DNA of 24,353 nt from a virus (taxonomy: Duplodnaviria > Caudoviricetes). Position 1 is the stretch's first letter. The number at the start of each line of letters is the position of its first letter. Of this stretch, positions 577 to 24,353 are shown in pieces. A program made the position numbers and the translations under genes. Location of the stretch: IMG/VR virus record IMGVR_UViG_3300049712_000032, positions 1-24,353 of that record, one strand, 5' to 3'. The notes under the pieces were generated by a model. The model worked only from the letters and a program-made list of their open reading frames with translations. It made no database searches and was not told the origin of the DNA.

Positions 577-801
577 CTGTAACAAGGTTACTTGGTTCCC
601 TTGAAACACGTACTTGAAGTCTTTTTCCCCTTTATTTAAAGCTACAAAAACGTAATCATCTACGTTGGGATTACGCATTACGCCTATTATATGTTGGATA
701 TCGTCCTCTATTTCCTCGGAACGCACATAATTTCTCGGAATAACCGAGATATTGGAATCCTTAAAGGTTATCTTTCCGATGCGGGGAATAGAGGTTTTCA
801 C
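535..801 (-). CDS. Hypothetical protein
   Basis: GTG start overlaps the upstream gene's TAG and follows GAGGA; converges on the peptidase gene. Confidence 0.6.
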   Translation of the reverse strand: MKTSIPRIGKITFKDSNISVIPRNYVRSEEIEDDIQHIIGVMRNPNVDDYVFVALNKGEKDFKYVFQGNQVTLLQLLDYIKTTIQVYK

Positions 802-1082
802 TAGTCCTCGTATAAATTGTCCCTGTAGTCTATGAACATTACAGGTTCAAGGCCTTGTCTAATTCTAAAGAAGTTAATATGACTAAGAATAAGGGCCTTA
901 TCCTCTTTCCCAAGGGGAATGCGGTCACTAAACTTAAACATGACAACATCGTTGGCACTCTCAACCATGTATTCCCGAGTATCATCACAGTAGGAATAAC
1001 AATCCGAGAACCAAACTTTGGGAATGTACTTGTTAACCGTCTGTTTGATAAACTTGTAGTTGGTCCATTTATTAAAAGACAT
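801..1082 (-). CDS. Small protein with C-terminal RDNLYED tag
   Basis: Ends EPVMFIDYRDNLYED*; start overlaps the end of the 1072..1215 ORF. Confidence 0.75.
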   Translation of the reverse strand: MSFNKWTNYKFIKQTVNKYIPKVWFSDCYSYCDDTREYMVESANDVVMFKFSDRIPLGKEDKALILSHINFFRIRQGLEPVMFIDYRDNLYED

Positions 1083-1215
1083 TGTAATGCTCCATCATGG
1101 CAAGGGTGAACGTGCCTACGATACTCAAACCCACAACTCGGGTAAAAGTGTTCATTGCCCCTGAGACAGCTATAGCACCAAGGGCCCAACCGAACCAAAG
1201 AGCAACACTAACCAT
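1072..1215 (-). CDS. 47-aa hydrophobic (membrane) peptide, not in the ORF track
   Basis: Hand translation MVSVALWFGWALGAIAVSGAMNTFTRVVGLSIVGTFTLAMMEHYNVF*. ATG sits in the DNLY codons of the upstream gene, after AGGGA, and the ORF fills the gap exactly. Confidence 0.65.
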   Translation of the reverse strand: MVSVALWFGWALGAIAVSGAMNTFTRVVGLSIVGTFTLAMMEHYNVF

Positions 1216-1525
1216 AGAGGTTATCCCTTATTTTGTTCACCCGTTCCAAGGCCTGTTTGATAGATTGGTAATCGGGGTGCATAATCCTGTTATCATCACG
1301 ATCATGAGTAAAGTAACAATGGCCACACCGTTCAATCCAGTCCTCCTTTTCATCCCTCAACCACTTAAAGCAATACTTTTTCTTCTCCCAGTATTCTTTA
1401 TACAAAGTTGCTAGTACTATATCAAGAATAAGACCCCAAGGAAAAATAAGGCCCATTACAAGAGGGGGAAAATCTCCCGCAGGATAACAGTGAACTATCA
1501 GTAATGCAATGGCGAGACTAACCAT
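1208..1525 (-). CDS. Membrane protein with C-terminal RDNLYG tag
   Basis: Two hydrophobic N-terminal segments; ends KIRDNLYG*. Confidence 0.75.
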   Translation of the reverse strand: MVSLAIALLIVHCYPAGDFPPLVMGLIFPWGLILDIVLATLYKEYWEKKKYCFKWLRDEKEDWIERCGHCYFTHDRDDNRIMHPDYQSIKQALERVNKIRDNLYG

Positions 1526-1958
1526 TCTTTACTTCTTCAAGGTTAACAGTATAAAGGGAGCCCCCACCTTTGCCTTCCTCCCGAACAATGTCAAGGGGGT
1601 TAATGGCAGGACGGGTGTACAGTTCGATTACCTCGATACGATCATGCTCACTCCAATCAGGGAAGTGCTGGCGAAGAGTCTCAATCGTAGGGGTCTTGAA
1701 CCTATGGTATTCCCCTGCATATACTTCCGTAGAAGCCCCCGGCATCAATACCGTTTCATCAATATTGCCAGCCCTGTCAGCCTTCCAAACCTCGATAATC
1801 ATGATACCTTTGAGGCAGTAGAAGATATTATTTTTAAATTGATGTAGGTGCTTCGAGCAATAGGACGAGGGTTTAACCCTGATATGGGCCATTTCAACGT
1901 CCTTGGTTTGGGCCACCATCACAGTAGACCCCCACACTTTGCCTTGGATATTTCCCAT
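1518..1958 (-). CDS. Cupin-fold protein (sugar isomerase-like)
   Basis: GKVWG, SKHLHQFK.N.FY...G and GEYHRF cupin metal-binding motifs. Confidence 0.75.
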   Translation of the reverse strand: MGNIQGKVWGSTVMVAQTKDVEMAHIRVKPSSYCSKHLHQFKNNIFYCLKGIMIIEVWKADRAGNIDETVLMPGASTEVYAGEYHRFKTPTIETLRQHFPDWSEHDRIEVIELYTRPAINPLDIVREEGKGGGSLYTVNLEEVKNG

Positions 1959-2065
1959 TACTGTACCTTCTTAGCGAGTTTATTAAACAGCTTTCGGATA
2001 TCTTTCAAAAAGCCTTTGAGTTTGCTATTTCCCCTTTTTGGAAGTCGCTTTGCTTTTTTTACCAT
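1958..2065 (-). CDS. 35-aa highly cationic peptide, not in the ORF track
   Basis: MVKKAKRLPKRGNSKLKGFLKDIRKLFNKLAKKVQ*; GGAGGG RBS upstream; TAATG overlap with the cupin start. Confidence 0.6.
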   Translation of the reverse strand: MVKKAKRLPKRGNSKLKGFLKDIRKLFNKLAKKVQ

Positions 2066-2615
2066 CGGTCTTTCCCTCCATTCTTTCTTCTAAAAGTTTC
2101 TTTTTAATATAGCCATCCATTCGGGTATCGTCCACTTCAATCGGACCTACAATAAACGGCTCCTCAGCTTCCCGAGGCTCAGGACGTTTAATTTCCTTAC
2201 GGCCCTTTTTAACCCGTTCCTTTAATTCCGTAGAGGAATAATTGTGGGAACGAGGATTAAAGTGAAAGGTTTCAGGTCTGATACTATCCCCCGTAAAGGA
2301 CTTGCCTTTGTGATCTTCCCCGATAAACCTAATGTCGTATTGACAAGTGTTCAGGATAGTCTCAAGGTCCTCCTCGGTTTCGTAGGGAATTACCCTGTCA
2401 ACATACTGGCAAGCCTCAAGCCTAACATATCTTTCAAAGATAGTTTCCGTGGGCCTTTGCTTCTCAGCCCGATACATGGAAGGGTCTACTTGAACACACA
2501 CGATAAGGTAGTCACAGTGTTGCTTGGCGTAATCCAACATTAGCAAATGACCAGCGTGGAGTAAGTCAAACACCCCTGCGGTAATGCCGATAACATCTTC
2601 ATCATTCATCTTCAT
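2025..2615 (-). CDS. Cytidylyltransferase-like protein (TagD/glycerol-3-phosphate cytidylyltransferase family)
   Basis: GVFDLLHAGH (HxGH), ER...L....YVD.VIPY, G.D and R....SST motifs. Confidence 0.85.
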   Translation of the reverse strand: MKMNDEDVIGITAGVFDLLHAGHLLMLDYAKQHCDYLIVCVQVDPSMYRAEKQRPTETIFERYVRLEACQYVDRVIPYETEEDLETILNTCQYDIRFIGEDHKGKSFTGDSIRPETFHFNPRSHNYSSTELKERVKKGRKEIKRPEPREAEEPFIVGPIEVDDTRMDGYIKKKLLEERMEGKTDGKKSKATSKKGK

Positions 2616-2808
2616 CGTACAGGTTATCCCTTATTTTATTCTTCTTCTTTTTGTTGCTAAAGAAATCATCCTCAAGGGCTTCTAGGGTAACGGCAAACCC
2701 CAATGGAATAATTTTATTTCCGTACTTAGCCCTGCTCTTATTGAACTCATCAAACCACTTTAATCCTTCTAAACCATCAGAGCCAGAAGGGTCTTTTGTT
2801 TTAGTCAT
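2602..2808 (-). CDS. Small protein with C-terminal RDNLYDEDE tag (start moved from 3018 to 2808)
   Basis: ATG of MTKTKDP lies in the upstream DNLY-D codons; ends KIRDNLYDEDE*. Confidence 0.7.
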   Translation of the reverse strand: MTKTKDPSGSDGLEGLKWFDEFNKSRAKYGNKIIPLGFAVTLEALEDDFFSNKKKKNKIRDNLYDEDE

Positions 2809-3037
2809 ACAAATTATCTTTCTTGTGAGGTTTAAACTCCCATTCCTTGCCGTTGAATACCAGCATATCCCCCCTTTTCGGATTGTCCGGTGCTTTAACC
2901 CAATCAAGGGACCAATATCCCGGTCCAAAGGGCTGTATGGTTGCCTTAGTGGTGTATACCACACTACTAGTATCCCAAATAGAGACTGTATTTGGACCAA
3001 CCCAAACACCAGTAACACTAGTAGATGCGGAGGTCAT
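2801..3037 (-). CDS. Small Trp-rich protein with C-terminal KDNLYD tag
   Basis: Start MTSAST after GAAGGGG; ends HKKDNLYD*. Confidence 0.7.
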   Translation of the reverse strand: MTSASTSVTGVWVGPNTVSIWDTSSVVYTTKATIQPFGPGYWSLDWVKAPDNPKRGDMLVFNGKEWEFKPHKKDNLYD

Positions 3038-3137
3038 ACCCCTTCTCAATCAACATAAACATAACGTGCAGTATCTCTGATACCACTACGATTAAACAGA
3101 TTAAAATTAAAATACAGTATTCAACAAACCTTAGCAA
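3018..3137 (-). CDS. Possible 39-aa single-pass membrane peptide
   Basis: Hand translation from a TTG start: MLRFVEYCILILICLIVVVSEILHVMFMLIEKGYDLRIY*; fills the gap between neighbours. Confidence 0.45.
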   Translation of the reverse strand: MLRFVEYCILILICLIVVVSEILHVMFMLIEKGYDLRIY

Positions 3138-3595
3138 AGGTCCTTCAAATCCACAGGTTTAAAGTCAGGTCCTTTTTGAACCTTACCGTCCTCTCGGAGG
3201 ATGGGTTTATTGTCAGGGCCAAGCTTGGACATATTGCTTTCATGGACTCTGCGGAAGCCCTCCATCTTAACCCGATGGAAGCCAAGGGCAAGGAAAGCAC
3301 CGTCCAGAACATATTGGATATCCAACAGGGCATCAAGGGTTTCTACCTTGCTTTGTTCGGTAAGAGCCTCTTTCAATTCATCTAGTTCCTCTTGGATAAG
3401 CTTAACCCGAAGTTCGTTAAGGGCATGGTCTGAAACATCAGGACTGTCCTTAACAGGGTGGCCGAAGGCCTCATGAAATTCCTTTACACCCTCAAGGGTA
3501 GAGCGCATTTGCTTTGCCGCCTTGTTGCTGAGTTTATCCAGTTGCTCGTTGACCATGTGCATAAGGGTATCGTATCTAACGGATTCTTGGGACAT
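3131..3595 (-). CDS. MazG-like all-alpha NTP pyrophosphohydrolase (PRA-PH/DR2231-type)
   Basis: VKEFHEAFG, LIQEELDEL, ETLDALLDIQYV, VHESNMSK and REDGKVQKG motifs; start placed at MSQES. Confidence 0.88.
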   Translation of the reverse strand: MSQESVRYDTLMHMVNEQLDKLSNKAAKQMRSTLEGVKEFHEAFGHPVKDSPDVSDHALNELRVKLIQEELDELKEALTEQSKVETLDALLDIQYVLDGAFLALGFHRVKMEGFRRVHESNMSKLGPDNKPILREDGKVQKGPDFKPVDLKDLC

Positions 3596-3596
3596 A

Positions 3597-3839
3597 CTAT
3601 TTCTCCAAACTTTCTTTAGTGGGAACGGTAAACGTAATGTTAGAACGGACCATGTGAGTCTTGGACCCATCAATTCCTTGGTGAGTTTCAACCCAAGCTT
3701 TAACCGACAGGTAGCCCTTATTGTGCCAAAACTGCTCAATACGTTTAGCAAGTTGATTACTGGCTCTTTTGTCGGTAAGGTAATTGGGGATTTTGGAACG
3801 AGTGTTCATATAGACCACGTTATTGCTTTTTCTTTTCAT
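3597..3839 (-). CDS. Hypothetical protein
   Basis: Tightly packed ORF in the operon. Confidence 0.6.
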   Translation of the reverse strand: MKRKSNNVVYMNTRSKIPNYLTDKRASNQLAKRIEQFWHNKGYLSVKAWVETHQGIDGSKTHMVRSNITFTVPTKESLEK

Positions 3840-4221
3840 AAATATTCACTTGGCCGTTTTGGGTTAATTCATCCTTGGCTTGTTTAATCTTCAACATATA
3901 CTTATACACCAACTCGGGCTCAAGGTCTGCCAAATGACAGATAAATTTAAAGTCCTTTCCTTGGCTCTTGTCCGTACCCATAAACCAATTGATGGAGTTT
4001 ACCCCCTCTTTGGTGTATTTATGGGTGCTTATGATATCTAATATAGCTCGGTCTATCACCCAACGCCAGAAGTATTTAATCCTTGTTATCTCTTCATTTC
4101 GGTAATCGTCTGACCCCTCAATTGGGAGTCTGCAAAATAATCCATAATCGCTGAGGGTTCTCCTAAAGGACCTAGGGTTATTCTTAAACTCTTCCAGAAG
4201 GTTGTCTTTTATTTCAGCCAT
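3820..4221 (-). CDS. Hypothetical phage protein
   Basis: Packed ORF with W..VI.RAI.D, W and DF..IC.LA.L.P pattern seen in small phage proteins. Confidence 0.65.
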   Translation of the reverse strand: MAEIKDNLLEEFKNNPRSFRRTLSDYGLFCRLPIEGSDDYRNEEITRIKYFWRWVIDRAILDIISTHKYTKEGVNSINWFMGTDKSQGKDFKFICHLADLEPELVYKYMLKIKQAKDELTQNGQVNIYEKKKQ

Positions 4222-4702: not shown

Positions 4703-4740
4703 GTGCCTCCACAGATTTTGAGTAGCAATGTTAATATAAG

Positions 4741-5610
4741 TTATCCTTTTGGAGTTATCTCGGTAACATTGGGAACACGTACTACCTTAGTAAGGTAGCG
4801 GGGATTGTCGGAATAGTCGAATACCCGCAGCCCTTTTCCACCGTTAACGTCTGACCAGCAGTTAAACTTATAGGGGCAGTAAGTACATTGCTTTCCAAGC
4901 TTCCTGTTCCCACTCTCCCCATCCTTTTCATCATCATAACAACGAGGAGGTTTAACCTCTGACTTGACCTTTTCCTTTAAGTCCTTAATCAAAGGCTTAA
5001 CGTCCACCATCTCAAGGTGGTTTACTTCCAACAGGCAAAGCTGACCATTCTCTTTGTTGATCGCAAGAAGGGCTGCTTCATCCGTACCCTCGGCCTCTGC
5101 ATATCCGCTTACTTGGGCCAGATACCCGAAATCATCCTGCTCGTAGATGGTCCCGTTTTTAAACTTATCAAAGGCCCGATTGGATGCTGACTTGATATCA
5201 ACAGGGATACCCTCAATCTTGGCATCGAGCTTGCCCCTGACCCCATCAACCTCTACCTTCTTCTGTTCATCTGTAACAGAATAGCCAGCCTCCCTACAGA
5301 GGAATAGAACTACCTCTTCAAGGATAGAACCGTACAGAAAGTTTATAAGACCCTCGGGTTTAAACCTACCAGAACGGGACCCCTTATCCCGCGCCTGATA
5401 CCAAAGCTTACGGGCAGGGGTTCCGATGGAACTCATATAGAGTCCATCATCCCCTTCCTTTTTATCCCGTTCCTTGGCAAGGGCCTTAGCCACAGCGTCA
5501 GCGATACCGTCCTTGAGCTTGGTAAGGTTAGCATCACTGGGCTTATGTTCCTTTTCTGAATTGAAAAGGTCGTGGATGGCGGGGATTAGGTCTTTAAGGT
5601 CTTTGGTCAA
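4741..5610 (-). CDS. Cas4-like PD-(D/E)XK exonuclease
   Basis: SSIG, G.LD....PVDIKSAS, Y..Q..GY and C-terminal C.YC.....C; typical phage replication context; no cas operon. Confidence 0.85.
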   Translation of the reverse strand: MTKDLKDLIPAIHDLFNSEKEHKPSDANLTKLKDGIADAVAKALAKERDKKEGDDGLYMSSIGTPARKLWYQARDKGSRSGRFKPEGLINFLYGSILEEVVLFLCREAGYSVTDEQKKVEVDGVRGKLDAKIEGIPVDIKSASNRAFDKFKNGTIYEQDDFGYLAQVSGYAEAEGTDEAALLAINKENGQLCLLEVNHLEMVDVKPLIKDLKEKVKSEVKPPRCYDDEKDGESGNRKLGKQCTYCPYKFNCWSDVNGGKGLRVFDYSDNPRYLTKVVRVPNVTEITPKG

Positions 5611-5635
5611 AAATACTAAATCCTTTTAAAAAGGA

Positions 5636-6257: not shown

Positions 6258-6812
6258 TTAAACCTTGGCTGCTTCCTTTGCATCTTCCCACGGAGGAGTA
6301 TCATCATCACCCTCGGCTCCATCTTCGATGGAGAAACCACCGTCAACTTCCTTAATGTTGTAGTCGATACCCGAGTTGGCTACCTTACGCTCAAACTTGT
6401 TAAGCTTGATAACCTGAACCGTTTGAAGAGTTGCGTACTTCTTGGATTTAAAGCCAGTGTACGTGGTAAAGGAAATGACTACCTCAGAACCGTTGCCAAT
6501 CTCAAAGTCACCGTAGAGGTTATCTTTGCCAGCAACAATCTCTTTCTTCTTGGCATCAACAACCTTCGGGGGGCTGTTGGGTTTGCCAGTAGCCTTTTGC
6601 AGTTCATTCCGTTTGAACTTGATAGTCTCGGTCCCATCGTCCTTCTTGACGATAAGATGCTCAAGGCCTTCCTCTTTAAGGACCTTGCGGTTCTGCTCAT
6701 CAACCACAATGTCGATGGACCAGATACCGCCAGTCTTTTCCTTGGCGTATTTCTTGTCGAGTTGGTGGGGCATAACCTTTGCCCACATGCACTTACCAGT
6801 AATCAGTCCCAT
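6258..6812 (-). CDS. ssb: Single-stranded DNA-binding protein (gp2.5-like)
   Basis: G...WAKV, P.VVDA, IGNGSEV, LQ.VQVI.L and an acidic tail ending DDDTPPWED; lies next to the polymerase; start MGLITG after AAGGGA. Confidence 0.82.
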   Translation of the reverse strand: MGLITGKCMWAKVMPHQLDKKYAKEKTGGIWSIDIVVDEQNRKVLKEEGLEHLIVKKDDGTETIKFKRNELQKATGKPNSPPKVVDAKKKEIVAGKDNLYGDFEIGNGSEVVISFTTYTGFKSKKYATLQTVQVIKLNKFERKVANSGIDYNIKEVDGGFSIEDGAEGDDDTPPWEDAKEAAKV

Positions 6813-6846: not shown

Positions 6847-6875
6847 AATATAGCATAAGTTATGAAAAATGTCAA
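6847..6875 (-). promoter_or_regulatory. Sigma70-type promoter for ssb
   Basis: TTGACA-17 nt-TATATT with a TG extended -10. Confidence 0.75.
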
Positions 6876-7492
6876 GAAAAATCTTTAGGATATTTTTCGA
6901 TAGGATACTTAAGTTTAGATTTAAAGATCTTTACCTCTTTATGAGAACCTATAAAATATACATACCGATGTTTTCTTGGGCGTTCCTTTAATTTTAACCT
7001 ATTTCCAAACCGTTCTTTCAAATACCCTATCCGGCTTTCTTTTCCCTTAGACATATCGGAAATGGTCTGACTGTGCAAGTGTTCCATCCCCTCTACAACA
7101 TACTCTGATCTTTTAGCCGACAACCCACAGTAAATAAAATTACAAGCTTGATACACAAAACCAACATGACCTTGGCTCTTATCTGCATAACTTACAATAA
7201 CAGAAGGTTTAGGCATCATCCTCATACTATTAGAGACTAGGAAACTAGCTTCATTCTTCCTGTTGTATTTTAGTACCAGCCTGTTCAACTCCCAAACATA
7301 CTCTGCCGATTCCTTGCCACAAACCCCAACCCTCAATGTGGAAGAAAAAGGCCTACCATAGGTAACAACCCCTATCAATTCTGTTCCGTCAAAAAGCCCA
7401 AAGGCAAAGGAAATGGAGGGTATGCGTTTGGCGTAATGCACGTTAAGTATGAAGTCATAAGTATCCTTTGCCTGTATCCTCTCCACCCTCAT
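6872..7492 (-). CDS. mom: Mom-like (GNAT-fold) DNA adenine modification protein
   Basis: HY, FGLF...L.GV.TYG.P, ELNRL, N.ASFLVS and VSYAD..QGHVG.VYQACNF.Y.G motifs of Mu Mom-like proteins. Confidence 0.8.
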   Translation of the reverse strand: MRVERIQAKDTYDFILNVHYAKRIPSISFAFGLFDGTELIGVVTYGRPFSSTLRVGVCGKESAEYVWELNRLVLKYNRKNEASFLVSNSMRMMPKPSVIVSYADKSQGHVGFVYQACNFIYCGLSAKRSEYVVEGMEHLHSQTISDMSKGKESRIGYLKERFGNRLKLKERPRKHRYVYFIGSHKEVKIFKSKLKYPIEKYPKDFS

Positions 7493-7498
7493 TAAAGA

Positions 7499-11690: not shown

Positions 11691-11882
11691 TTAATATGCG
11701 CCACCATTCTTGATATATTTTTCCCAATTATCAGCCGCCGCCCTAACATCATGAAACCCATGAATATTAAGGTTATTGGCATTATTGAGAGCCAGTTGTA
11801 GAAGCTTAAACCTAAGTATGCTTACATCGGCAACATCTTGAAGATTGTCCACGTAAACTTGATCGTTACTATTACTTGCCAT
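11691..11882 (-). CDS. Hypothetical protein
   Basis: Packed ORF; contains VDNLQD near the N-terminus. Confidence 0.6.
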   Translation of the reverse strand: MASNSNDQVYVDNLQDVADVSILRFKLLQLALNNANNLNIHGFHDVRAAADNWEKYIKNGGAY

Positions 11883-12033
11883 TAATCACCCAATCAACAA
11901 CCTTGTTCAGGGATTTCACGTATTCCTTATCAAAATCGCTGTAATCAATAGAGTCTGAAAACGTCTTAATTATCTGTAGGCGCACACTCTGTTCGGGAGT
12001 AAGGGTATCAGGATACAGATTATCAATAGCCAT
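11872..12033 (-). CDS. 53-aa protein with N-terminal IDNLYP, not in the ORF track
   Basis: MAIDNLYPDTLTPEQSVRLQIIKTFSDSIDYSDFDKEYVKSLNKVVDWVINGK*; AAGGA RBS. Confidence 0.65.
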   Translation of the reverse strand: MAIDNLYPDTLTPEQSVRLQIIKTFSDSIDYSDFDKEYVKSLNKVVDWVINGK

Positions 12034-12035: not shown

Positions 12036-12356
12036 TTATACTTCCTTTCTTTCATATTCATCATCATCATATAAGTTGTCTTTTACTTTGTAGCCATAGG
12101 CGGTAACACCCCACCCATCCAATTCAAACCGTTGTTGACCTGTCCGGTTCTTGTATTTTGGATGGCTAAGTGATCTGGCTACATCCCGAACGTACTCCCC
12201 CTTTTTATCATCCCAGTATATCAGCCCAAGTTCAACATCCTCCATTACACTATCAATCACTCTATCCGCATCCCTAAAAAGCTCTTTAGGAGACAGGGCA
12301 TTTCTTATGAAATAAACGGTTACTCCTAAAGATATCAGTATGATGAGAAAGTCCAT
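12036..12356 (-). CDS. Membrane-anchored protein with near-terminal KDNLYDDDE tag
   Basis: N-terminal TM; ends YKVKDNLYDDDEYERKEV*. Confidence 0.75.
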   Translation of the reverse strand: MDFLIILISLGVTVYFIRNALSPKELFRDADRVIDSVMEDVELGLIYWDDKKGEYVRDVARSLSHPKYKNRTGQQRFELDGWGVTAYGYKVKDNLYDDDEYERKEV

Positions 12357-16226: not shown

Positions 16227-16484
16227 ATGGCAGAACACATAGATGATAGTGATGGACAAGAGACAATCAAATACTTTAAAGGGTTTGGTATCTTTTGTAA
16301 GTTAATCAAGGATGAGATAACCAACGAGTATGTGGTTATTGCTCAAGATTTATATGATGATGATACCCCTTCCGAATGGTCCTTTAAAGAGTTTAGTAGT
16401 GCTGAGAGTGTCTTTGATAAGGTAACGAGGGACGCTATAGAGACTGAAACTCAAACCCTGTATATTGAGGACCCCGAGTTTTAA
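16227..16484 (+). CDS. Acidic hypothetical protein, divergently transcribed
   Basis: Only plus-strand ORF in a gap free of minus-strand genes; strongly acidic. Confidence 0.65.
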   Translation: MAEHIDDSDGQETIKYFKGFGIFCKLIKDEITNEYVVIAQDLYDDDTPSEWSFKEFSSAESVFDKVTRDAIETETQTLYIEDPEF

Positions 16485-16786
16485 TAGCTAAGCACTAAAT
16501 TTTCCCCTTCATCGTACATATTATCTGATTTATAGGCTATAACTTTGGTTATATCAACATGATGTTGGGGTGAATTGCGGCTTAAGTATTGCCCTGATTT
16601 TAAATCATGCCTCCAACTATCAAAACAGTTTATTTCCGTGCAAGCCCCTTCCAATGTCTCATTGTTGGTACAGGTCCAAAATACACCTAACGCCCTATCT
16701 ATCTTCATAACTCGGGTGTAGGAGCTTTTATCGATTGTACGATATACGTTTCCAACCCGTACTTCTGGTATGTCATTCGTAGTCAT
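16481..16786 (-). CDS. Small beta-rich protein with variant tag SDNMYDE
   Basis: Start MTTND lies in the upstream ENLY-D codons; VRVGNVYRT N-terminal motif; paralog of 17431..17715. Confidence 0.72.
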   Translation of the reverse strand: MTTNDIPEVRVGNVYRTIDKSSYTRVMKIDRALGVFWTCTNNETLEGACTEINCFDSWRHDLKSGQYLSRNSPQHHVDITKVIAYKSDNMYDEGENLVLSY

Positions 16787-16910
16787 AAAGATTCTCCCGC
16801 ACCTCTTTATCGTCAATAAACATTACAGGACCAAGGTACTTTCTGTTATGCACGTTTACGGATTGTCGTCTGGCCCTTTTATACCTGTTTCTAAAGTGTT
16901 TAATCGTCAT
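16773..16910 (-). CDS. 45-aa protein with RENLYDYE tag, not in the ORF track
   Basis: MTIKHFRNRYKRARRQSVNVHNRKYLGPVMFIDDKEVRENLYDYE*; coupled at both ends. Confidence 0.7.
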   Translation of the reverse strand: MTIKHFRNRYKRARRQSVNVHNRKYLGPVMFIDDKEVRENLYDYE

Positions 16911-17188
16911 ATAGGTTATCTCTTAAACTGTAATTTACCTTTAGGTCCAGTGTAAACTGTGATACGTCAACCGTAAGGTTAGAAAGAAGGATTCCTGTTT
17001 TAAGACTATGTTTGTTGGAATCACAAGGGATATCTTCCATTGCATACTCTTTTTTTAGTCCAATTCTTCCCAGTGTAGAAGTAACCTGACTCTTCATCCA
17101 CCGAACTAACCTTGGAATACTCATCGGTAACGTCTTTGTAGACATTGCCTACCTTAACATTATAAGGGTTATACGGATTAAAAGTCAT
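16900..17188 (-). pseudogene. Frameshifted DNLY-tagged paralog of 17431..17715
   Basis: MTFNPYNPYNVKVGNVYKD...GYFYTGKNWT joins KKEYAMED...RDNLYDD if one base is removed from the A7 run (T run at 17050-17056). Confidence 0.72.
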
Positions 17189-17444
17189 ATAGGTTATCCC
17201 TAACTGGTCTGTACCCGATACCTAGATTAAACTGGCTTAGTCCGGTATTTATCCGAGCCATTTTAGTGTCTTTTAGACATTCCCCTATGTCTCTGTAACC
17301 ATGAGTTAGGGAAACACTATCATCCTCTGTTACAGAGATAACTTTACAATACCATATAATTCCAGACATACTATGGCCTACGATATCGCCAGCCCTGCAA
17401 GAATCCCGAGGGTACTTATAAGGTTTAAATTCAGGCATCTTCAT
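17178..17444 (-). CDS. Small protein with RDNLYDF tag
   Basis: AGDIVG..WYCKVI..SLTHG; ends RPVRDNLYDF*. Confidence 0.78.
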   Translation of the reverse strand: MKMPEFKPYKYPRDSCRAGDIVGHSMSGIIWYCKVISVTEDDSVSLTHGYRDIGECLKDTKMARINTGLSQFNLGIGYRPVRDNLYDF

Positions 17445-17715
17445 GATATAAATTGTCCCTGTATGTCCTTTTCGCAGGACCTTTGGTAAGGTCTATATTT
17501 AATCTTTCTATGCTAAGTGTAGTATATCTCCCAGTGAGAAGGCAATGTTCTGAGGTACTTGTTTCGGTATCCTCTCCAGCACCCGATATTGTGTGGTAGT
17601 TTCCCGTTGTATAAAATACACCCCTATAAAGGTCTACTTTCATAACCTTAGAGTAAAGTCCACCGTTGTCTTGGTAAACATCACCAACACATATTTTATA
17701 CGGGTTTTGGCTCAT
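17431..17715 (-). CDS. Small protein with RDNLYHEDA tag
   Basis: ICVGDVYQD N-terminal motif; ends RTYRDNLYHEDA*. Confidence 0.78.
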   Translation of the reverse strand: MSQNPYKICVGDVYQDNGGLYSKVMKVDLYRGVFYTTGNYHTISGAGEDTETSTSEHCLLTGRYTTLSIERLNIDLTKGPAKRTYRDNLYHEDA

Positions 17716-17727
17716 TTTAGGTTAGGG

Positions 17728-17934
17728 CTACTTGTCCCAAGGATTAAATTTCTGTCGTTCCAAAAAGGCTACTTTACGCCAAAGTTTGTTAGCTTCTTTG
17801 CTGGCCCGAATAGCAATCTTGAAGTCAGTTTTGTTCTTCTTCGGGTCCTTGAAGTACAGGTTCATGTGCTTCTGTAGGGTGTACTCGTACTTCATTGCCC
17901 GTAGTTCCAGTTCCTTGATCGTTGGGAGGGTCAT
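17728..17934 (-). CDS. Basic helical hypothetical protein
   Basis: ORF packed upstream of 17715. Confidence 0.6.
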   Translation of the reverse strand: MTLPTIKELELRAMKYEYTLQKHMNLYFKDPKKNKTDFKIAIRASKEANKLWRKVAFLERQKFNPWDK

Positions 17935-18070
17935 TGGAAGATAGTTTCCTTAGATTGGTTAGGGAGGTATGGTAATCCTCAAGGGTTAATTCCATATCGT
18001 CAACATCATATTCCTCGGTGAGGATTGAGTCAATTGATACCGGATAACCTTTATATCGAGAATTACACAT
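17825..18070 (-). CDS. Hypothetical protein, possibly leaderless
   Basis: ATG lies 6 nt after TATAAT; the 3' part overlaps the next ORF by about 110 nt, so its extent is uncertain. Confidence 0.45.
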   Translation of the reverse strand: MCNSRYKGYPVSIDSILTEEYDVDDMELTLEDYHTSLTNLRKLSSNDPPNDQGTGTTGNEVRVHPTEAHEPVLQGPEEEQN

Positions 18071-18112
18071 ACCCTAATTATACCCTAGCCAATTTAAAGG
18101 GAACAATCCCCT

Positions 18113-18403
18113 CTAGCGAGTTGAGGCCTTGCTCATATCAAAGACCTTCGGCTTGGAAGGCTTGCCCTCTTCGATCTGTTTCTGCAAGTTCCTGACTTTC
18201 CTGTTCTTTTTGGCAAGAACACGGTTCAGGTGCATCACTTGGGTCTTGTACTCGAACATCTTTCCTCTGACAAGGTGAAGTTCGTCTGACAGTTCTTGGA
18301 CAATATCAGCCATATCGTCAAACTGTCCCTTTGTTTTGAACAGTTCGGACTTGAGTTGTTTTATTTCCCTATGCTGTCGGTACTCGTCAATGAATTTAAA
18401 CAT
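18113..18403 (-). CDS. Coiled-coil hypothetical protein
   Basis: AAGGAG RBS; heptad-like helical sequence. Confidence 0.72.
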   Translation of the reverse strand: MFKFIDEYRQHREIKQLKSELFKTKGQFDDMADIVQELSDELHLVRGKMFEYKTQVMHLNRVLAKKNRKVRNLQKQIEEGKPSKPKVFDMSKASTR

Positions 18404-18438
18404 GGTTAAAGTCTCCTTTTCTCTTTTTGTGTGTGTGG

Positions 18439-18576
18439 TTAAGGTTGTAGTGCCATCATGAAGTGAAAGTTAATAATCCAAAGGATAGCAAAGAACAGGA
18501 AAGAGCCCAGTTTTCTTTTCCCGAAATACCACCCTGCCAGACAAGCCAGTAAGATACTGTTGATAAAGAACATCAT
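18439..18576 (-). CDS. Small two-TM membrane protein
   Basis: MMFFINSILLACLAGWYFG...; ATGA overlap with the upstream stop. Confidence 0.6.
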   Translation of the reverse strand: MMFFINSILLACLAGWYFGKRKLGSFLFFAILWIINFHFMMALQP

Positions 18577-18755
18577 AGTGCAGTTGCTCCCTGAACGATA
18601 AGGTATAGACCAGCCACAAAGTTTAGCACTGATAGGGCCAATCCTAGAAGAACCCACCAAAAGGGAAAGCCTGTGTCGAAGCTTTTCTTTGCCGCCGATA
18701 GGGTTAAAACACTAATAAAAAGTGATACGGAACCTATAAAAATATCCAACATCAC
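18573..18755 (-). CDS. Small two-TM membrane protein
   Basis: Two hydrophobic helices; start overlaps the upstream stop. Confidence 0.6.
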   Translation of the reverse strand: MMLDIFIGSVSLFISVLTLSAAKKSFDTGFPFWWVLLGLALSVLNFVAGLYLIVQGATAL

Positions 18756-19258
18756 AAGATTTCCTTTCCTTTGATCTGGTTAATACGCATTTCAGCATAC
18801 CGCCGAACCTTTTCGAGGTCCGTAATCTCGCTCTCTTCAAGGGTCATGCCATCATATTGTTTAAGCCCCGCCCTTGCGACATACTTGATGATGCTCCCTT
18901 GCCAGAAGTTGAACCCGTTAGCCATGATGAAGGTAATGGGCTCGATCTTGTACTTGGTGTAATGGGAGGGTTTGTACACCTTGGACTGGATATTGTAGGC
19001 TTGAGAAACATTATGGCAGTCCATTATTTTAAAGTTTTCCATGTGGTCCTCGGCAGTGGGTTCTGTCGAAGCACAAGCACATTCCACGTTGCAGCAATTT
19101 TCCTCGGACATTTTTCCCAGTTCCTTTCCTATGATTTTATATTCCCACTGTTCGGGGTCCTTTATGAACAGGGCAAAGTCTACCCTGTCGTGGTAGGCCT
19201 TAGCTAGTATTATGTCCTTCCACTCGTTAAAATTCTCTTTAAAATTATTCATCGTCAT
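18752..19258 (-). CDS. DUF3310-family protein (T7 gp1.7 nucleotide kinase-like C-terminal domain)
   Basis: PSHYT...IEPI.FI......F..G.IIKYV.RAG.K......DLEK...Y. Confidence 0.8.
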   Translation of the reverse strand: MTMNNFKENFNEWKDIILAKAYHDRVDFALFIKDPEQWEYKIIGKELGKMSEENCCNVECACASTEPTAEDHMENFKIMDCHNVSQAYNIQSKVYKPSHYTKYKIEPITFIMANGFNFWQGSIIKYVARAGLKQYDGMTLEESEITDLEKVRRYAEMRINQIKGKEIL

Positions 19259-19517
19259 GATAAAGATTATCCCTAGCCAAAGTTATCAGGTTATACTCTC
19301 CTCCACCAACGCAAATAATTCCTTTTAAATCATATGCCCCCCAACATCTAGCTTTATCCTCATCAAGAGCAGCCGCATATCTTGAAGCATCACTGAAAGT
19401 TGCGTAATTCCTATCGCATATTAGGGGGTATAAACCGTAACCCTCTGTCCGTATAACTACGGCGTACTTTCCGTTAGCCTGTATCCAAATTTGTTTAGGT
19501 TTAAATACCTTCGTCAT
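19245..19517 (-). CDS. Small protein with RDNLYHDDE tag
   Basis: Start MTKVFK lies in the upstream DNLY-D codons; ends LARDNLYHDDE*. Confidence 0.75.
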   Translation of the reverse strand: MTKVFKPKQIWIQANGKYAVVIRTEGYGLYPLICDRNYATFSDASRYAAALDEDKARCWGAYDLKGIICVGGGEYNLITLARDNLYHDDE

Positions 19518-19821
19518 ACAGGTTATCCACATAACTAAAAGGGATTAGCCTACCGGAAACCCCTAGGCTGTTGTCCTTTAGGTTGTCCCCATCCCAAATA
19601 CCCCATCCGAATATGCTCAACAACCCATTGTCGTGAACAAACCTAACATAGAGGTTACGTTTAAAAGGGTTCTTGTTTTCAAGGGTGGCTACCTCTGCGT
19701 CAAAACACCTCCAATCCTCTGTCGTAAACGCCCTGCATAGACGGAAGCTGTATGCCTTCTGATGGGCCTCGTGCCATTCAATCCTAAACTCAGTGCCATC
19801 TTTAAAACGGGATAGCATCAT
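19501..19821 (-). CDS. Small protein with VDNLYDEGI tag
   Basis: Start MMLSRF after AAGGA; ends SYVDNLYDEGI*. Confidence 0.72.
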   Translation of the reverse strand: MMLSRFKDGTEFRIEWHEAHQKAYSFRLCRAFTTEDWRCFDAEVATLENKNPFKRNLYVRFVHDNGLLSIFGWGIWDGDNLKDNSLGVSGRLIPFSYVDNLYDEGI

Positions 19822-20548
19822 ATTCCTTAATTTCAACCTTTTGGATAGTCTCATTAATGATTGGGGTAGCGGGAACATACGGATTATCCTTTGCAGCTTC
19901 TACTATCTTACCACAATTGAGGATATGAGTCCAGCCCTCACAAGGGGGGAATTTCTCGAACATCTTTTTAAAATGTTTGTGGTTCTCTCTTACCCCTTTA
20001 ATCCAAACGATACGTTTCTCGTTGGTAAGTTTATCATCTGGAACATACCGCCCTCCCCTCGTAGGGGGTTTATAAGACTCAAAGCTTTGGTATCCCCAAA
20101 CAAATTCCCTATGGCCGATTTTATCATCCCACCTGACTTTGCAAATTGAAGAGTCAAAATCATGGTAAATGCTTTCGGGGTGAAAGCCATTTTCCAAGCA
20201 TATAAAATCAATACCAATCCCTTTATAGTTTAAACCAAATACTGCTACCATACCTTGAATTTTAGTGTAATCCACTGACGGTTGAAAGGGTGGTTGTTTA
20301 GGCGTTGGGGCTTGTCCTTCCTTTTTAACTACCTCACAATCGGGAAAGAGGCCTTGAATAGCCTTTTGTAGGCTGTCCGTATTCCCCCCTTTGTAGAAAA
20401 AGGTACGCAGATATACGTCTATGTCGGACGCCTCGTTGCCGAGATACCAGTCCCTTGGAGCCCCGCCGCAAATACAAGCGAGTGGGTCTAAGCCCCGTAT
20501 CTGGCTAAGAACTTCTCGGGCGATAGCTTGTTGCTCTTTAATCGTCAT
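19802..20548 (-). CDS. Nucleotidyltransferase (tRNA nucleotidyltransferase/poly(A) polymerase head-like)
   Basis: GGAPRDWY......SDIDVY, IDFI and FDSSICK motifs. Confidence 0.82.
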   Translation of the reverse strand: MTIKEQQAIAREVLSQIRGLDPLACICGGAPRDWYLGNEASDIDVYLRTFFYKGGNTDSLQKAIQGLFPDCEVVKKEGQAPTPKQPPFQPSVDYTKIQGMVAVFGLNYKGIGIDFICLENGFHPESIYHDFDSSICKVRWDDKIGHREFVWGYQSFESYKPPTRGGRYVPDDKLTNEKRIVWIKGVRENHKHFKKMFEKFPPCEGWTHILNCGKIVEAAKDNPYVPATPIINETIQKVEIKEYDAIPF

Positions 20549-20903
20549 TGTAGAGGTTATCCCTTACGTAAGGTTCTAGGTATAGGGCGTGTTCATTTAC
20601 AGCAATTCCCCAAACATCATGGATAAGATACCCGTTATACTTTGTTGGGAATTCGTCATACCCTGTTGATATACTTTTAAGGTCCATACTCGCATAATAG
20701 TCAACCCTACACTGTCCCTCTTCGTTAAGGCCAGTTCCTCGGTCTACCACTCTGGCAAAAAGACAATCCCTCCAAGTGTGCCTACTATTAAGAGGTATGT
20801 TTCGTTTAGATTTTACCTCATACCAGATATCCTCTCTAAAGGTAAAACCCTTTCTGGTTTTAGCAATCTCTGCTATTTCCACGTCAGTAATTGGTTCAAT
20901 CAT
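20538..20903 (-). CDS. Small protein with RDNLYNDD tag
   Basis: Start MIEPIT lies in the upstream DNLY-D codons. Confidence 0.75.
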   Translation of the reverse strand: MIEPITDVEIAEIAKTRKGFTFREDIWYEVKSKRNIPLNSRHTWRDCLFARVVDRGTGLNEEGQCRVDYYASMDLKSISTGYDEFPTKYNGYLIHDVWGIAVNEHALYLEPYVRDNLYNDD

Positions 20904-21132
20904 AGAGGTTATCCCTAAATTCTTGTAGAATGTCGGTATCACCCTCACTCTTAGCCCAAGCACACCTAAGACCTTCTATATCGTAAAGCCTTGCTGAGAT
21001 AAACATAGAGGGTTTTAAAGGTTCTAGGCGATATATAAAAGGAGAATACATTGAGTCAGTTTTGGTACATTTAAATACATGCCCATCTTTACTTCTATAA
21101 AAATTTCCAATCTTTAATTCCAGCCGGTCCAT
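20896..21132 (-). CDS. Small protein with RDNLYD tag
   Basis: LKIGNFYRSKDG N-terminal motif; ends QEFRDNLYD*. Confidence 0.75.
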   Translation of the reverse strand: MDRLELKIGNFYRSKDGHVFKCTKTDSMYSPFIYRLEPLKPSMFISARLYDIEGLRCAWAKSEGDTDILQEFRDNLYD

Positions 21133-21145
21133 AGAAAATTTTTTC

Positions 21146-21586
21146 TTACTCCCGCTTACCGATTTCTTCGTTGATATACGCCCTTCCATCTTTCTCAAAA
21201 GTAACGTAAGGCTTTCCGTTTAGGCAGATACGTTTTACTTGTTTGAGGGGAAAGGGTATAAGGCAAGTTTGCTTTGGGGTATTGCGGAGATTGTAGATTT
21301 TAATGAAGAGGTTCTTTTCTTCTTCGCTTCGGAATTGACGTTTGGCTAAAGCTTCATCGAGGGGGAGTTCCTTTGGTGTTCCTTCCAATTCCTTTTGGAA
21401 TTCGTAGGCCCTTTCTTGCTTACAGAGAAAGGTAAAGGCTTCCTTGGCCCGTTCAAGTTCTTCCCGAGAAAGGAGGTCAGGGGGCAAGGACTCCCGTTCC
21501 TTTACCGCCCGTTCCCGTTCGGCAAGGATACCTTTGATTTCGTCAAGAAGGCTGTCGATACCGGATAAATCACTACTCTTCCCCAT
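21146..21586 (-). CDS. Hypothetical protein
   Basis: GAGGAG RBS; overlaps the upstream stop. Confidence 0.7.
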   Translation of the reverse strand: MGKSSDLSGIDSLLDEIKGILAERERAVKERESLPPDLLSREELERAKEAFTFLCKQERAYEFQKELEGTPKELPLDEALAKRQFRSEEEKNLFIKIYNLRNTPKQTCLIPFPLKQVKRICLNGKPYVTFEKDGRAYINEEIGKRE

Positions 21587-21755
21587 AGTTTATACACTCC
21601 TCTTCCTCTTTTTTAAAATTAAAATCGTATTGAACCTTGGCGTTAGGGTCCGTAACAGAGTCACAATCCCATACAATAACTTTGGTTTCCTCGTCTGGAA
21701 TTCCCACCACTTTAAAGGGTTTACCTTTGTGGATAAATACTTCAATCACTTTCAT
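21573..21755 (-). CDS. Hypothetical protein
   Basis: ATG lies in the DNLY-E codons of the 21742..22020 gene. Confidence 0.65.
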   Translation of the reverse strand: MKVIEVFIHKGKPFKVVGIPDEETKVIVWDCDSVTDPNAKVQYDFNFKKEEEECINYGEE

Positions 21756-22020
21756 ACAAGTTGTCCTTTATCAGCTTAACCCAAACACCCTTACTGTTTT
21801 GTACGAGTCGTTCAAAAGGGTATTTTAAATGTAAGTGGTAGTCCTCATAATCTTCCTCCCCACACCAGTAACCTAAGCCACTGTATATCTACCCATCCGT
21901 ACACTCCCATTCTGCACCTATGCCTCCTAAAAACTCTTTAATAATACAAACTTCTCCGTTGTTTGAACGGTAGGCTTCCCCTACTCTAAGGCTTGGCATT
22001 GGTCCTCGGTTATTCGTCAT
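21742..22020 (-). pseudogene. DNLY-tagged gene with one in-frame TAG
   Basis: MTNNRGPMPSLRVGEAYRSNNG...ECTDG*IYSGLGYW...KLIKDNLYESD*; TAG at 21889-21891. Confidence 0.75.
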
Positions 22021-22306
22021 TGTAAAGATTATCCTTATATCCCCAAACCCTAAAAGGTACTTTTAAATCATGCCCTTTTTCTCGTGTCCCCCGCCAAACC
22101 CCATCAGAATTCCAGTAGTTATAGTCCTTTGTTTCATAGTACCACCGATATGCTGTTCCGTCCTTGTGAAATAATTCTCCAAGCCAAACATCATCAACAT
22201 TAGGGAATAGCCCCAAATCTTTACTTGAACCATCAAAAATAATGTAACCTCCCTCGTTGGTTTCTAACTTCTTTCCGACAAGGGATTTATCAAGCCTTCT
22301 AATCAT
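22010..22306 (-). CDS. Small protein with KDNLYNDE tag
   Basis: AGGA RBS; ends WGYKDNLYNDE*. Confidence 0.78.
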   Translation of the reverse strand: MIRRLDKSLVGKKLETNEGGYIIFDGSSKDLGLFPNVDDVWLGELFHKDGTAYRWYYETKDYNYWNSDGVWRGTREKGHDLKVPFRVWGYKDNLYNDE

Positions 22307-22315
22307 AGTCCTAAA

Positions 22316-22756
22316 CTACTCGTCTAAAGTATACAGGTTGTCGTAAATTATATTTCCGTACTTATCCACCTGAATAAATGGATAGTGAACGTGGTATTCA
22401 CTTAGGGGGATATCTCCCCAAGTATAGCCAATCCCCTCGGGGGAGTAAAACCACTCCCCTATGTCCTCTGCTATCATCTCGCCTTTATTTAGGTAAAGGT
22501 TACACCGATAAACTGTTTGTCCTTGGTCCCCACGAGTTTCTTTGGTAACTCCCACAAACCATATGCCGGATGGGTCCCCATCGTAACTATTAATCGCCCA
22601 AGGTTTTCCGTTTAAACGTCTTATCTCCCCTTGGATAGCGTAAAATTTACCTAATCGGAGAGTAGCAGTTTTACGTTCCTTGAAGAGGGCAACTTTTATC
22701 TTGCCTCCATGCCTACCTTCAAGCGTGTATACTGTCTTATCCTCATCAAGAGACAT
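22316..22756 (-). CDS. Protein with YDNLYTLDE tag
   Basis: Start MSLDED overlaps the upstream gene's end; ends IIYDNLYTLDE*. Confidence 0.75.
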   Translation of the reverse strand: MSLDEDKTVYTLEGRHGGKIKVALFKERKTATLRLGKFYAIQGEIRRLNGKPWAINSYDGDPSGIWFVGVTKETRGDQGQTVYRCNLYLNKGEMIAEDIGEWFYSPEGIGYTWGDIPLSEYHVHYPFIQVDKYGNIIYDNLYTLDE

Positions 22757-22970
22757 ACTCTTTAATCCACCCAAGAAACATTTCCACGTTGGACTCCATT
22801 GTTTCCCCGTTCAGGAATTCAAATTCCTTTTCCGAGCCGATTAAACGATTTAGAAAGTAGATATCCACCTTTCTAGCAGAGGTATCCCAACGAAAGGAGT
22901 AATCCCCTTCGCTTACGGAGATAATCCCTGTTCGATCATCCCTTGTTATGCTCTTGTAGGTGTGAAGCAT
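22746..22970 (-). CDS. Hypothetical protein
   Basis: GGGGAGG RBS within the upstream gene's tail. Confidence 0.68.
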   Translation of the reverse strand: MLHTYKSITRDDRTGIISVSEGDYSFRWDTSARKVDIYFLNRLIGSEKEFEFLNGETMESNVEMFLGWIKEYVS

Positions 22971-23256
22971 CTAAGTATTCCTCCCCATCATAGAGGTTTT
23001 CCGGTACTCGGTATTTGAGATAGTTTTGGTAGGTTTCGAGGTCCAAGGTAGTTACAGGTGTGTAGCCTGAGCCATTCCCGTAAAACATACACGTTTTAAT
23101 GGTTCCTATCGTGTCAGTGTTGGGTTTTGTCTTGCCGATGATAATGCCCTTGTAGTGTCCTGTATCCTCTCTACCTATGATAAGGTATAGTCTCCCTGTC
23201 TCCCCACCTTTAAACACTTTATTTATATTAGTGTTTCGTGCCAAGGAAACCCCCAT
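22936..23256 (-). CDS. Small protein with variant tag PENLYDGEE
   Basis: Near-terminal RVPENLYDGEEY; start uncertain. Confidence 0.68.
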   Translation of the reverse strand: MGVSLARNTNINKVFKGGETGRLYLIIGREDTGHYKGIIIGKTKPNTDTIGTIKTCMFYGNGSGYTPVTTLDLETYQNYLKYRVPENLYDGEEYLDASHLQEHNKG

Positions 23257-23722
23257 CACCCTTCTCACTCCCTTTATCACCCTCTTCTCCCTTTCCTACA
23301 AAGGGTTCAAGGGCATCAGCGAGGTCGGGGTTGATCTTGCGAAGTTCCTCAATGGAACCCCCCTTAAGAGTGACTTCAACGGGTCGTTCGTCCCCTTCTT
23401 CGGGCTCGGGCATACCATGTTCTTTTAGGTACTCGCTGACCTGTTCTTGGAAAATCTCAAGGGTCCGTTGAAGGATTGCTGACATATCCTTGCCGAATTT
23501 GCTTTCCCCCTCTTTTGCCTTTAAATCATCTTCAAAGGATTGCTCACTGGGGAAATACTCGGGCTTGGTAGTGCGAATACTCTCTTTAAGAAGAGGGGGG
23601 ATGCTGTTCACCACATCATCGGGAAGTTGCATAACCATTTGCATGGTGTACATGGTGGTAGCAACCCCAAGCCAGTATGCGCGGAGTGCTTCGGTGTCTT
23701 TTTCGCTTTTAAAGATTTTCAT
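23228..23722 (-). CDS. Acidic hypothetical protein
   Basis: GAGGA RBS; 164-aa clean ORF. Confidence 0.72.
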   Translation of the reverse strand: MKIFKSEKDTEALRAYWLGVATTMYTMQMVMQLPDDVVNSIPPLLKESIRTTKPEYFPSEQSFEDDLKAKEGESKFGKDMSAILQRTLEIFQEQVSEYLKEHGMPEPEEGDERPVEVTLKGGSIEELRKINPDLADALEPFVGKGEEGDKGSEKGDGGFLGTKH

Positions 23723-23759
23723 GGTGCTTTTTGTCCTCTTCTTCGTTGTTGGTTCGTTA

Positions 23760-24061
23760 TTAATCTAAATCGTCGGTGTACAAATTGTCTTTCATGGTTC
23801 GGTGTACGACATGGAACCCCTATCTAGGGAGAACTTAAGATTTCCTGTACTGGACCATGCTGTTTCCGTTTGCTCTAGAGCCCTTAAAATTCTTTTATCT
23901 TTATCCAACTCCTCTATCTCGGAAACACCATGAGTAAGGGAATATTCACCCTTTTCGTTAAGGGCTATGATCTTCCAGTACACCCTATCATTTTTTGATG
24001 CAACGATATCCCCTACATAGAACACTGTACCATTAGATGCTTTATAAGGTTTATTCGTCAT
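23760..24061 (-). pseudogene. DNLY-tagged gene with apparent 1-nt frameshift near the 3' end (paralog of 17178..17444)
   Basis: ORF 23792..24061 stops early; adding one base near the G4 run (23817-23820) gives ...LDRGFHVVHRTMKDNLYTDDLD*. Confidence 0.65.
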
Positions 24062-24290
24062 ACAGATTATCCCTTGGGCCCCGAAATACTAAGGTGAAGC
24101 TAATAAGAAGTTGCCCAGTATTTCCAATTTTATTGGTATGATAGGCTTTCTCGATAGAAGTCTCCGATGCAGTTACATCGTATAGTGTGGTTCCAGTTCT
24201 ATCTGTGTGGACTTTAAGAATTCTTAAATTGTAGGTTTCGGAACCTCGGACAATATCCCCAACTTGGAATTTTTCCTCTCGTATTGTCAT
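24051..24290 (-). CDS. Small protein with RDNLYDE tag
   Basis: FQVGDIVRG N-terminal motif; ends GPRDNLYDE*. Confidence 0.78.
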   Translation of the reverse strand: MTIREEKFQVGDIVRGSETYNLRILKVHTDRTGTTLYDVTASETSIEKAYHTNKIGNTGQLLISFTLVFRGPRDNLYDE

Positions 24291-24324
24291 AATACCAGTA
24301 TACCCCTATGTGTTTAAGAAAAGA

Positions 24325-24353
24325 TTAATCGTCTTCGGGATAAAGGTTATCAT
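24325..24353 (-). CDS. 3' end of a further DNLY-tagged gene running off the window
   Basis: GAT AAC CTT TAT CCC GAA GAC GAT TAA = DNLYPEDD*. Confidence 0.65.

Follow-up and report, generated by a model that had tools for sequence, protein, structure and literature searches.

What do about twenty small, rapidly changing proteins of one uncultured phage from soil have in common when they end in, or close to, the same four residues? The question is raised by a 24,353-nucleotide sequence of a tailed virus (Duplodnaviria; Caudoviricetes; IMG/VR record IMGVR_UViG_3300049712_000032), which is the whole virus sequence of that record (class linear, 53% complete) and is called the window below. It covers the replication arm of a podovirus-like phage, with genes nearly all on the minus strand. 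A second record (G001) is 99.1-99.9% identical to the window across three blocks and contributes 10.6 kb of a converging structural and lysis arm. Together the two cover about 35 kb of phage sequence, with the capsid, portal and scaffold genes lying outside it. A first-pass annotation, made from the letters only, had listed 21 reading-frame ends with a C-terminal motif around DNLY, here called the DNLY tag.

Occurrence of the motif

The listing was borne out: all 21 stops lie in frame on the minus strand, 1-17 residues past the tyrosine of [DE]N[LM]Y. Seventeen of these ends belong to intact genes, three to genes broken in the present assembly and one to a frame cut by the window end. The four ends at 16900, 23760, 21742 and 24325, first given as open reading frames (ORFs), are not intact, owing to frameshifts (16900, 23760), an in-frame TAG at 21889-21891 (21742) and the window cut (24325). 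Asparagine and tyrosine are invariant across the tags, ENLY occurs twice, DNMY occurs once, and all six leucine codons are used.

The window has 22 occurrences of the DNA pattern GAYAAYYTNTAY, with 0.41 expected and no more than 2 in any of 100 shuffles. At the protein level, the motif lies within the last 25 residues of 18 out of 56 minus-strand genes, compared with a mean of 0.043 and a maximum of 1 in 2000 shuffles; the gene set was called by hand, and one member (3131-3600) was read out of frame and is untagged in either reading. No C-terminal 4-mer was shared by more than 5 ORFs in any of 71 control loci (10 kb or longer), whereas the most-shared one here is on 15. The comparison with shuffled controls that had been proposed as a check thus places the C-terminal frequency far above background. 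It was also correct that no recognizable enzyme ends in the motif, yet the single-stranded DNA-binding protein (SSB) has an internal copy. This copy (6513-6524) and an N-terminal one in a 53-aa protein (12013-12024) lie beyond the first list.

Looser resemblances were seen as well. The protein at 3820-4221 (-) begins with MAEIKDNLL, possibly a degenerate N-terminal copy without the tyrosine. An 85-aa ORF at 16227-16484 (+) runs against the arm direction, converges on the tagged 16481 gene and contains QDLYDDD internally, which loosely resembles the tag; the ORF had no match in PHROGs or Pfam. Among pattern matches outside any gene frame, the one at 18043-18054 (+) precedes a sigma-70-like -35 box (18033) by 10 nt, and the one at 4734-4745 (-) spans the exonuclease stop codon; either may be due to chance.

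Selection on the peptide

Conservation was scored around the modal DNA word among minus-strand 12-mers and was not anchored on the peptide. DNLY-reading words include six exact matches (0.03 expected). At one change from the modal word, eight synonymous words were counted (14 possible words, 0.13 expected) and three non-synonymous ones (118 words, 0.43 expected), of which two read ENLY and one DNL-stop. At two changes, four synonymous words (18 words, 0.03 expected) compare with six non-synonymous ones (1962 words, 5.7 expected). Since synonymous neighbors are far above expectation and leucine is written in six ways, the peptide is what is kept. Selection acts on the DNLY peptide, as had been argued at first pass against a DNA repeat.

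A DNA-only element, such as a recombination scar or a quasi-palindromic operator with the peptide as an incidental product, would fit the up to 17 identical nucleotides common to tags, the contigs that switch at tags and the two out-of-frame pattern matches. It is nevertheless considered extremely unlikely. The almost purely synonymous divergence in the modal-word scan largely refutes it, 19 of the 21 minus-strand GAYAAYYTNTAY matches share the frame of a gene (intact in 16 cases, broken in 3), and the SSB copy is an in-frame insertion.

The internal copy in the SSB

The SSB model folds like T7 gp2.5 (Table 1). A single insertion of nine residues, modeled as a coil of low confidence, carries KDNLY immediately before a conserved IGNGS. 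It is missing from six of six homologues at 48-54% identity, and the loop is short in all three named relatives and in distant SSBs. By this alignment, the SSB gained DNLY as an insertion. As the insertion is far from any start, stop or gene junction, the motif can act there only as a peptide. The internal copy also shows that the motif needs no free C-terminus, which argues against a plain C-terminal degron.

A broader alternative, in which a protease or adaptor recognizes the tag and thereby sets the time of turnover for early proteins and the SSB, appears unlikely. A single reader in the cytoplasm could have access to every kind of copy (soluble, membrane-anchored and loop), and the phage has a BCS1-type AAA+ protein (10157-11473). 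This gene is however found in 179 phage records, in which the tag was not scanned for, and is therefore not lineage-specific. Moreover, the tag ends are acidic and variable, acidic ends block known ssrA-type degrons, and a cut site would be of little gain to an essential SSB. C-terminal degrons and HbYX-type end motifs, which have a fixed position at the free end, were rejected as a class for the tag: the tyrosine is penultimate in only 3 of 21 tags and has 1-17 residues trailing it, and the SSB copy is internal.

Overlap with the start of the next gene

In 14 of the 21 terminal tags, the ATG of the next gene is found inside the tag, at +10 (nine cases) or +13 (five cases) from the first base of the D codon. 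An AGG directly precedes the D codon in eight of those 14. Since the tag bases of these 14 double as Shine-Dalgarno site and start codon for the following gene, the leading arginine (AGG) and some of the acidic tail count as features at the RNA level. The first-pass reading of a peptide tag is amended here: selection on the peptide and a linear motif stand, but the overlap with ribosome-binding site and start in 14 of 21 tags had been overlooked. Untagged overlapping junctions encode D-N-L in 0 of 14 cases; Y or N does precede the overlap in their peptides. Translational coupling accounts for the flanks of the tag (R and part of the Y-D tail), not for the D-N-L core.

The two fixed ATG distances and the AGG before the motif would also fit an element acting in cis, as nascent peptide or RNA, by which termination-reinitiation coupling to the following gene is tuned. 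Such an element is highly unlikely given that the distance from tyrosine to stop ranges over 1-17 residues and that an ATG at +10 or +13 is missing from seven terminal tags, from the SSB loop and from the N-terminal copy. The Shine-Dalgarno sites are of ordinary strength (-4.9 vs -5.4 kcal/mol), no common RNA fold was found among 22 tag sites, and there was no Rfam match.

Possible gene turnover at tag junctions

In contigs of runs X3, X5, and X8, position 20903 is joined directly to what normally comes after the tag at 20561. As the two tags have 14 identical bases in common, this jump reads as loss of the intervening gene. Further contigs depart from the window sequence at 22014 (X3, X4), 19534 (X4, X5), and 19528 (X3), each at or adjoining a tag, and a contig of X4 skips the tagged gene at 1208, weakly, with 21 letters on its short side. 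These contigs suggest that genes are swapped or lost at tag junctions.

Bodies of the tagged proteins

The bodies had been described as widely different, but about a third are detectable paralogues. With tags removed, one family comprises 16481, 17431, and 17021 (mutual E 6e-11 to 4e-6) and a second one 17178 and 23792 (E 3e-8), with weaker links to 21742 (with 16481, E 1e-4) and to 22316; the 2602 protein was read out of frame in these comparisons. The 17431 model (mean pLDDT 64) had no fold match at E 0.001, with SH3-like barrels among the weak rows. A ten-member body profile reached two repeat proteins, one of them with weak Tudor/SH3 matches in Pfam. The paralogous bodies are likely SH3-like. 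Two other tagged proteins (1208 and 12036) have strongly hydrophobic N-terminal segments, with Kyte-Doolittle 19-mer values of 2.0-2.1.

No PHROGs or Pfam family was matched by the tagged ORFans at E 0.01 (2602 and 2801 with longer starts), and NCBIfam gave three weak unrelated matches only (E 0.005-0.08). Protein searches returned only proteins of the present phage, P0019 and three unrelated long proteins, and no usable Atlas match was found for the 23228 protein. P0019 is 59% identical overall to the 22010 protein, and the last 19 residues are identical. When the bodies were compared, as possible copies of pieces of core phage proteins, with 24 larger proteins of the window and G001, a set outside which capsid, portal and scaffold genes fall and in which 2602 was out of frame, the best E was 0.035. 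Matches of a tail profile in PDB sequences (poxvirus portal protein, vector tag) were taken as chance.

Variable bodies behind a short common peptide recall the internal proteins of T4, which share this layout according to the accessible part of PMC9026906. The DNLY tag might accordingly be read as a virion-loading signal that binds scaffold or core, so that counter-defence proteins and the SSB are packaged and ejected with the DNA, and the variable, dispensable nature of the tagged genes would agree with this. Such loading is rather unlikely, as the T4 capsid targeting sequence is described there as an N-terminal propeptide of 10 residues that is cleaved by gp21, the prohead protease, whereas the motif here is C-terminal or internal with 1-17 trailing residues. 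The two strongly hydrophobic N-terminal segments also suit capsid packaging poorly.

Likeness to an adenylylation loop

In E. coli, the glutamine synthetase (GS) loop reads D-K-N-L-Y-D-L-P at the adenylylated tyrosine (accessible parts of PMC6076278 and PMC11356428), and NLYDLP is named as the GS adenylation site (PMC6076278). The tag resembles this loop around its invariant asparagine and tyrosine, and only 1.8e-4 of random 6-mers score at least as high as the loop on the tag profile. This would allow a tyrosine-modification site, either as a mimic of the GS loop that is read by host GlnE or as a target that a kinase or the phage nucleotidyltransferase (19802-20548) would modify, by which all tagged proteins would be switched together. 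The loop scores 6.4 bits, however, and the tags 15.7-22.4. In place of the K of GS (Y-3), each of the 21 profiled tags has D or E, and the following L-P is found in 0 of 21. Furthermore, the Y-D part is also favored by the T-ATG-A overlap, and the nucleotidyltransferase family occurs in 122 phage records and is therefore not lineage-specific. Modification of the tyrosine is on the whole distinctly unlikely, and the likeness to GS is treated as a lead, not as membership. A bolder version, in which the phage copied the host GS loop onto the SSB and about 21 accessory proteins, with GlnE AMPylating all of them and coupling replication and counter-defence to nitrogen status, would be a long shot.

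The nucleotidyltransferase (-) is itself flanked by tagged genes. KDNPY occurs in it 28 residues before the end, and its last residues, EYDAIPF, resemble the C-terminal tip of bacterial SSBs.

Proposed docking onto a common hub

The linear docking or sorting motif put forward at first pass is supported by the selection on the peptide and by the SSB insertion. As in docking tails, the motif is kept as a peptide on unrelated proteins, and it is predicted to lie in flexible segments outside the fold, namely the tail in the 17431 model (mean pLDDT 64 for the model) and the SSB coil. Our tentative preference is that DNLY docks about 22 proteins, including the SSB through its loop, onto one common hub, likely phage-encoded, at replicating phage DNA. 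One reader would bind all DNLY copies, and the flexible tail would bring the variable bodies, which may be accessory or counter-defence effectors, to the hub. The junction DNA would act as a crossover point where bodies are swapped or dropped and the tag and translational coupling are kept. A hub is favored since soluble, hydrophobic and loop carriers could all reach it in the cytoplasm and since the docking tails of replisomes act in this manner. Restriction of the tag to the present lineage is the reason for guessing at a phage-encoded partner, whose gene may lie in the missing half or so of the genome.

Several points weigh against docking at a replication hub. No partner protein was identified for the tag, and the placement at replicating DNA comes from the single SSB copy. 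The polymerase, primase-helicase and nucleases showed no tag, and two pattern matches (4734-4745 and 18043-18054) fit no gene frame. Single members are dispensable, given that three tagged genes are broken in the present assembly, and no tagged lineage independent of the present phage was found in the scanned collections. The junction evidence consists of short contig ends (14-30 letters) from four runs at 80% likeness, which show that the forms exist and not how frequent they are.

A single motif of four residues is found on about a third of the genes in the arm and, as an acquired loop, in a core replication protein, which offers a direct handle on the reader. Knowledge of the partner could reveal what unites large sets of phage ORFans and how such genes enter by exchange. 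With codons that double as ribosome-binding site and crossover point, the phage illustrates how little it may cost a tag to spread along an operon.

Search for other tagged phages

Pattern scans of IMG/VR matched 6, 11, 115, and 0 loci. Eight loci of the 11-locus set, those not from G001, were scanned, and in the 115-locus set the 35 beyond the first 80 may hold less flank. Besides G001, no scanned IMG/VR locus had more than one terminal copy, and none of the 9 loci from the GTDB pattern scan had a tagged ORF. Scans with an SSB profile returned G001, one distant locus and two short contigs, and nothing in GTDB. In 32 loci with a related exonuclease (241 kb, mostly short), 0 tagged ORFs were found. 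Overall, IMG/VR, JGI, GTDB and the protein collections yielded no further tagged lineage, and no description of the DNLY tag was found in a literature search that left subscription journals mostly aside.

The phage and its gene content

The positions of the tagged genes are given in Table 1. PHROGs and Pfam searches assign to the arm a family A polymerase, primase-helicase, endonuclease I, Cas4-like exonuclease and Mom, as well as a BCS1-type AAA+ protein, an RF-1-domain protein, a nucleotidyltransferase and a metallophosphoesterase. No tRNA was found in the window. The region 16400-24353 is present in 24 listed runs, all of them soil or rhizosphere metagenomes and two of them candidate sources, and no RNA dataset with phage sequence was listed. 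Host hints from gene relatives point loosely to Proteobacteria. Among named genomes, HTVC103P-type pelagiphages and Roseobacter phage CRP-9 come nearest, and the closest SSB relatives are located on Logan contigs of 68-73 kb.

Table 1. Tagged genes and SSB features of the window; genes are named in the text mostly by their 3' end, and next ATG distances are counted from the first base of the D codon.
Position	Strand	Feature	Basis
801..1082	-	93-aa ORFan ending RDNLYED; tag 810-821	
1208..1525	-	105-aa protein, hydrophobic N-terminal part, ending RDNLYG; next ATG +10	
2602..2808	-	68-aa protein ending RDNLYDEDE; next ATG +13	
2801..3037	-	78-aa protein ending KDNLYD; next ATG +10	
6258..6812	-	T7 gp2.5-type SSB, 184 aa	Foldseek 1je5, E 1.6e-7
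6504..6530	-	9-residue SSB insertion with KDNLY, low-confidence coil	alignment to 6 homologues
11872..12033	-	53-aa protein, DNLY at residues 4-7 (N-terminal copy)	
12036..12356	-	106-aa protein, N-terminal hydrophobic segment; KDNLY and 10 further residues	
16481..16786	-	101-aa paralogue of 17431; DNMY then 10 residues	
16773..16910	-	45-aa basic protein ending RENLYDYE; next ATG +10	
16900..17188	-	tagged 17431 paralogue, frameshift in A7 run of present assembly	continuous frame in run X4 contig (17052)
17178..17444	-	88-aa paralogue of 23792, ending RDNLYDF	
17431..17715	-	94-aa protein, predicted five-strand beta barrel and unstructured tail, ending RDNLYHEDA	structure model
19245..19517	-	90-aa protein ending RDNLYHDDE; next ATG +13	
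19501..19818	-	105-aa protein ending VDNLYDEGI; next ATG +10	
20538..20903	-	121-aa protein ending RDNLYNDD, between two tags with 14 identical nt	gene apparently missing from contigs of 3 runs
20896..21132	-	78-aa protein ending RDNLYD; next ATG +10	
21742..22020	-	92-codon tagged gene (KDNLYESD), in-frame TAG 21889-21891	
22010..22306	-	98-aa protein ending KDNLYNDE; homologue P0019	
22316..22756	-	146-aa protein ending YDNLYTLDE; tag away from any start site	
22936..23256	-	106-aa protein, ENLY then 17 residues	
23760..24061	-	paralogue of 17178; tag KDNLYTDDLD out of frame in present assembly	in frame in run X8 contig (23816)
24051..24290	-	79-aa protein ending RDNLYDE; next ATG +10	
24325..24353	-	reading-frame end ending DNLYPEDD, cut by window edge	

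Several neighboring genes were also observed. The Mom-family and HNH genes (6872-7492 and 9571-10152, -) flank the polymerase, are absent from G001 and both look mobile; a contig of run X3 likewise skips the Mom gene. The BCS1-type protein (-) matches BCS1_N and AAA in Pfam, with its best relatives in large phages. The RF-1-domain protein at 15536-15898 (-) has a GGQ motif and is likely an ArfB-like ribosome rescue factor, and a sigma-70-like promoter (16178-16150) precedes its gene. The window opens (1-576, +) with a BTLCP transglutaminase-like cysteine protease with a hydrophobic N-terminus, the last gene of the lysis arm, which is complete in G001 locus L008 (10549-11244).

On its opposite, structural arm, G001 carries a tagged 59-aa gene amid glycosyltransferase-like genes. 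This block (L008, 5221-8256) consists of ORFs that look glycosyltransferase-like by eye and an MptE-like gene, and is placed between a large virion-type protein and the lysis genes.

Comparison with known systems

HTVC103P-type pelagiphages, CRP-9 and MW202615 share with the present phage a related SSB (30-33% identity) and two converging gene arms, and the pelagiphages also a primase-helicase (39-42% identity). They differ in that the three whole genomes contain 1, 0, and 0 DNA matches of the motif and in that their SSB loop is short.

Among phage replisomes, the clamp-binding tails of T4 gp43, gp33, and gp55 and the acidic tail of T7 gp2.5 are C-terminal docking tails, in which a short, flexible, acidic-aromatic peptide gives unrelated proteins one hub, and the SSB here has the gp2.5 fold. 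In contrast to those systems, where a few core proteins carry the tail at the very end, about 22 mostly accessory proteins are the carriers here and the SSB copy is internal. No clamp gene was seen in the 35 kb.

T4 internal proteins, as far as the accessible text of PMC9026906 describes them, likewise join a short common terminal peptide to poorly conserved bodies within one phage lineage. The present motif is shorter (4-7 residues) and is placed C-terminally (21 copies), internally (SSB) or at residues 4-7 (one copy), unlike an N-terminal propeptide. The GS I-beta adenylylation loop, the substrate of GlnE, shares an N-L-Y-D core around a tyrosine in an exposed loop (same portions of PMC6076278 and PMC11356428), but the charge at Y-3 is reversed in the tags, the L-P of N/D-L-Y-D-L-P is missing and there is no GS fold.

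The PeSL cassettes of T4-type phages, intergenic promoter-stem-loop elements in the available portion of PMC2839356, are similar as repeated junction DNA at which non-essential genes are exchanged or lost. The present repeat differs in being coding and synonymously diverged, in overlapping the next start and in having no common fold. Variable phage proteins with common terminal peptides (the T4 capsid targeting sequence) and repeat-mediated gene swaps (PeSLs) are already known, while no account of the DNLY tag was found in the literature searched.

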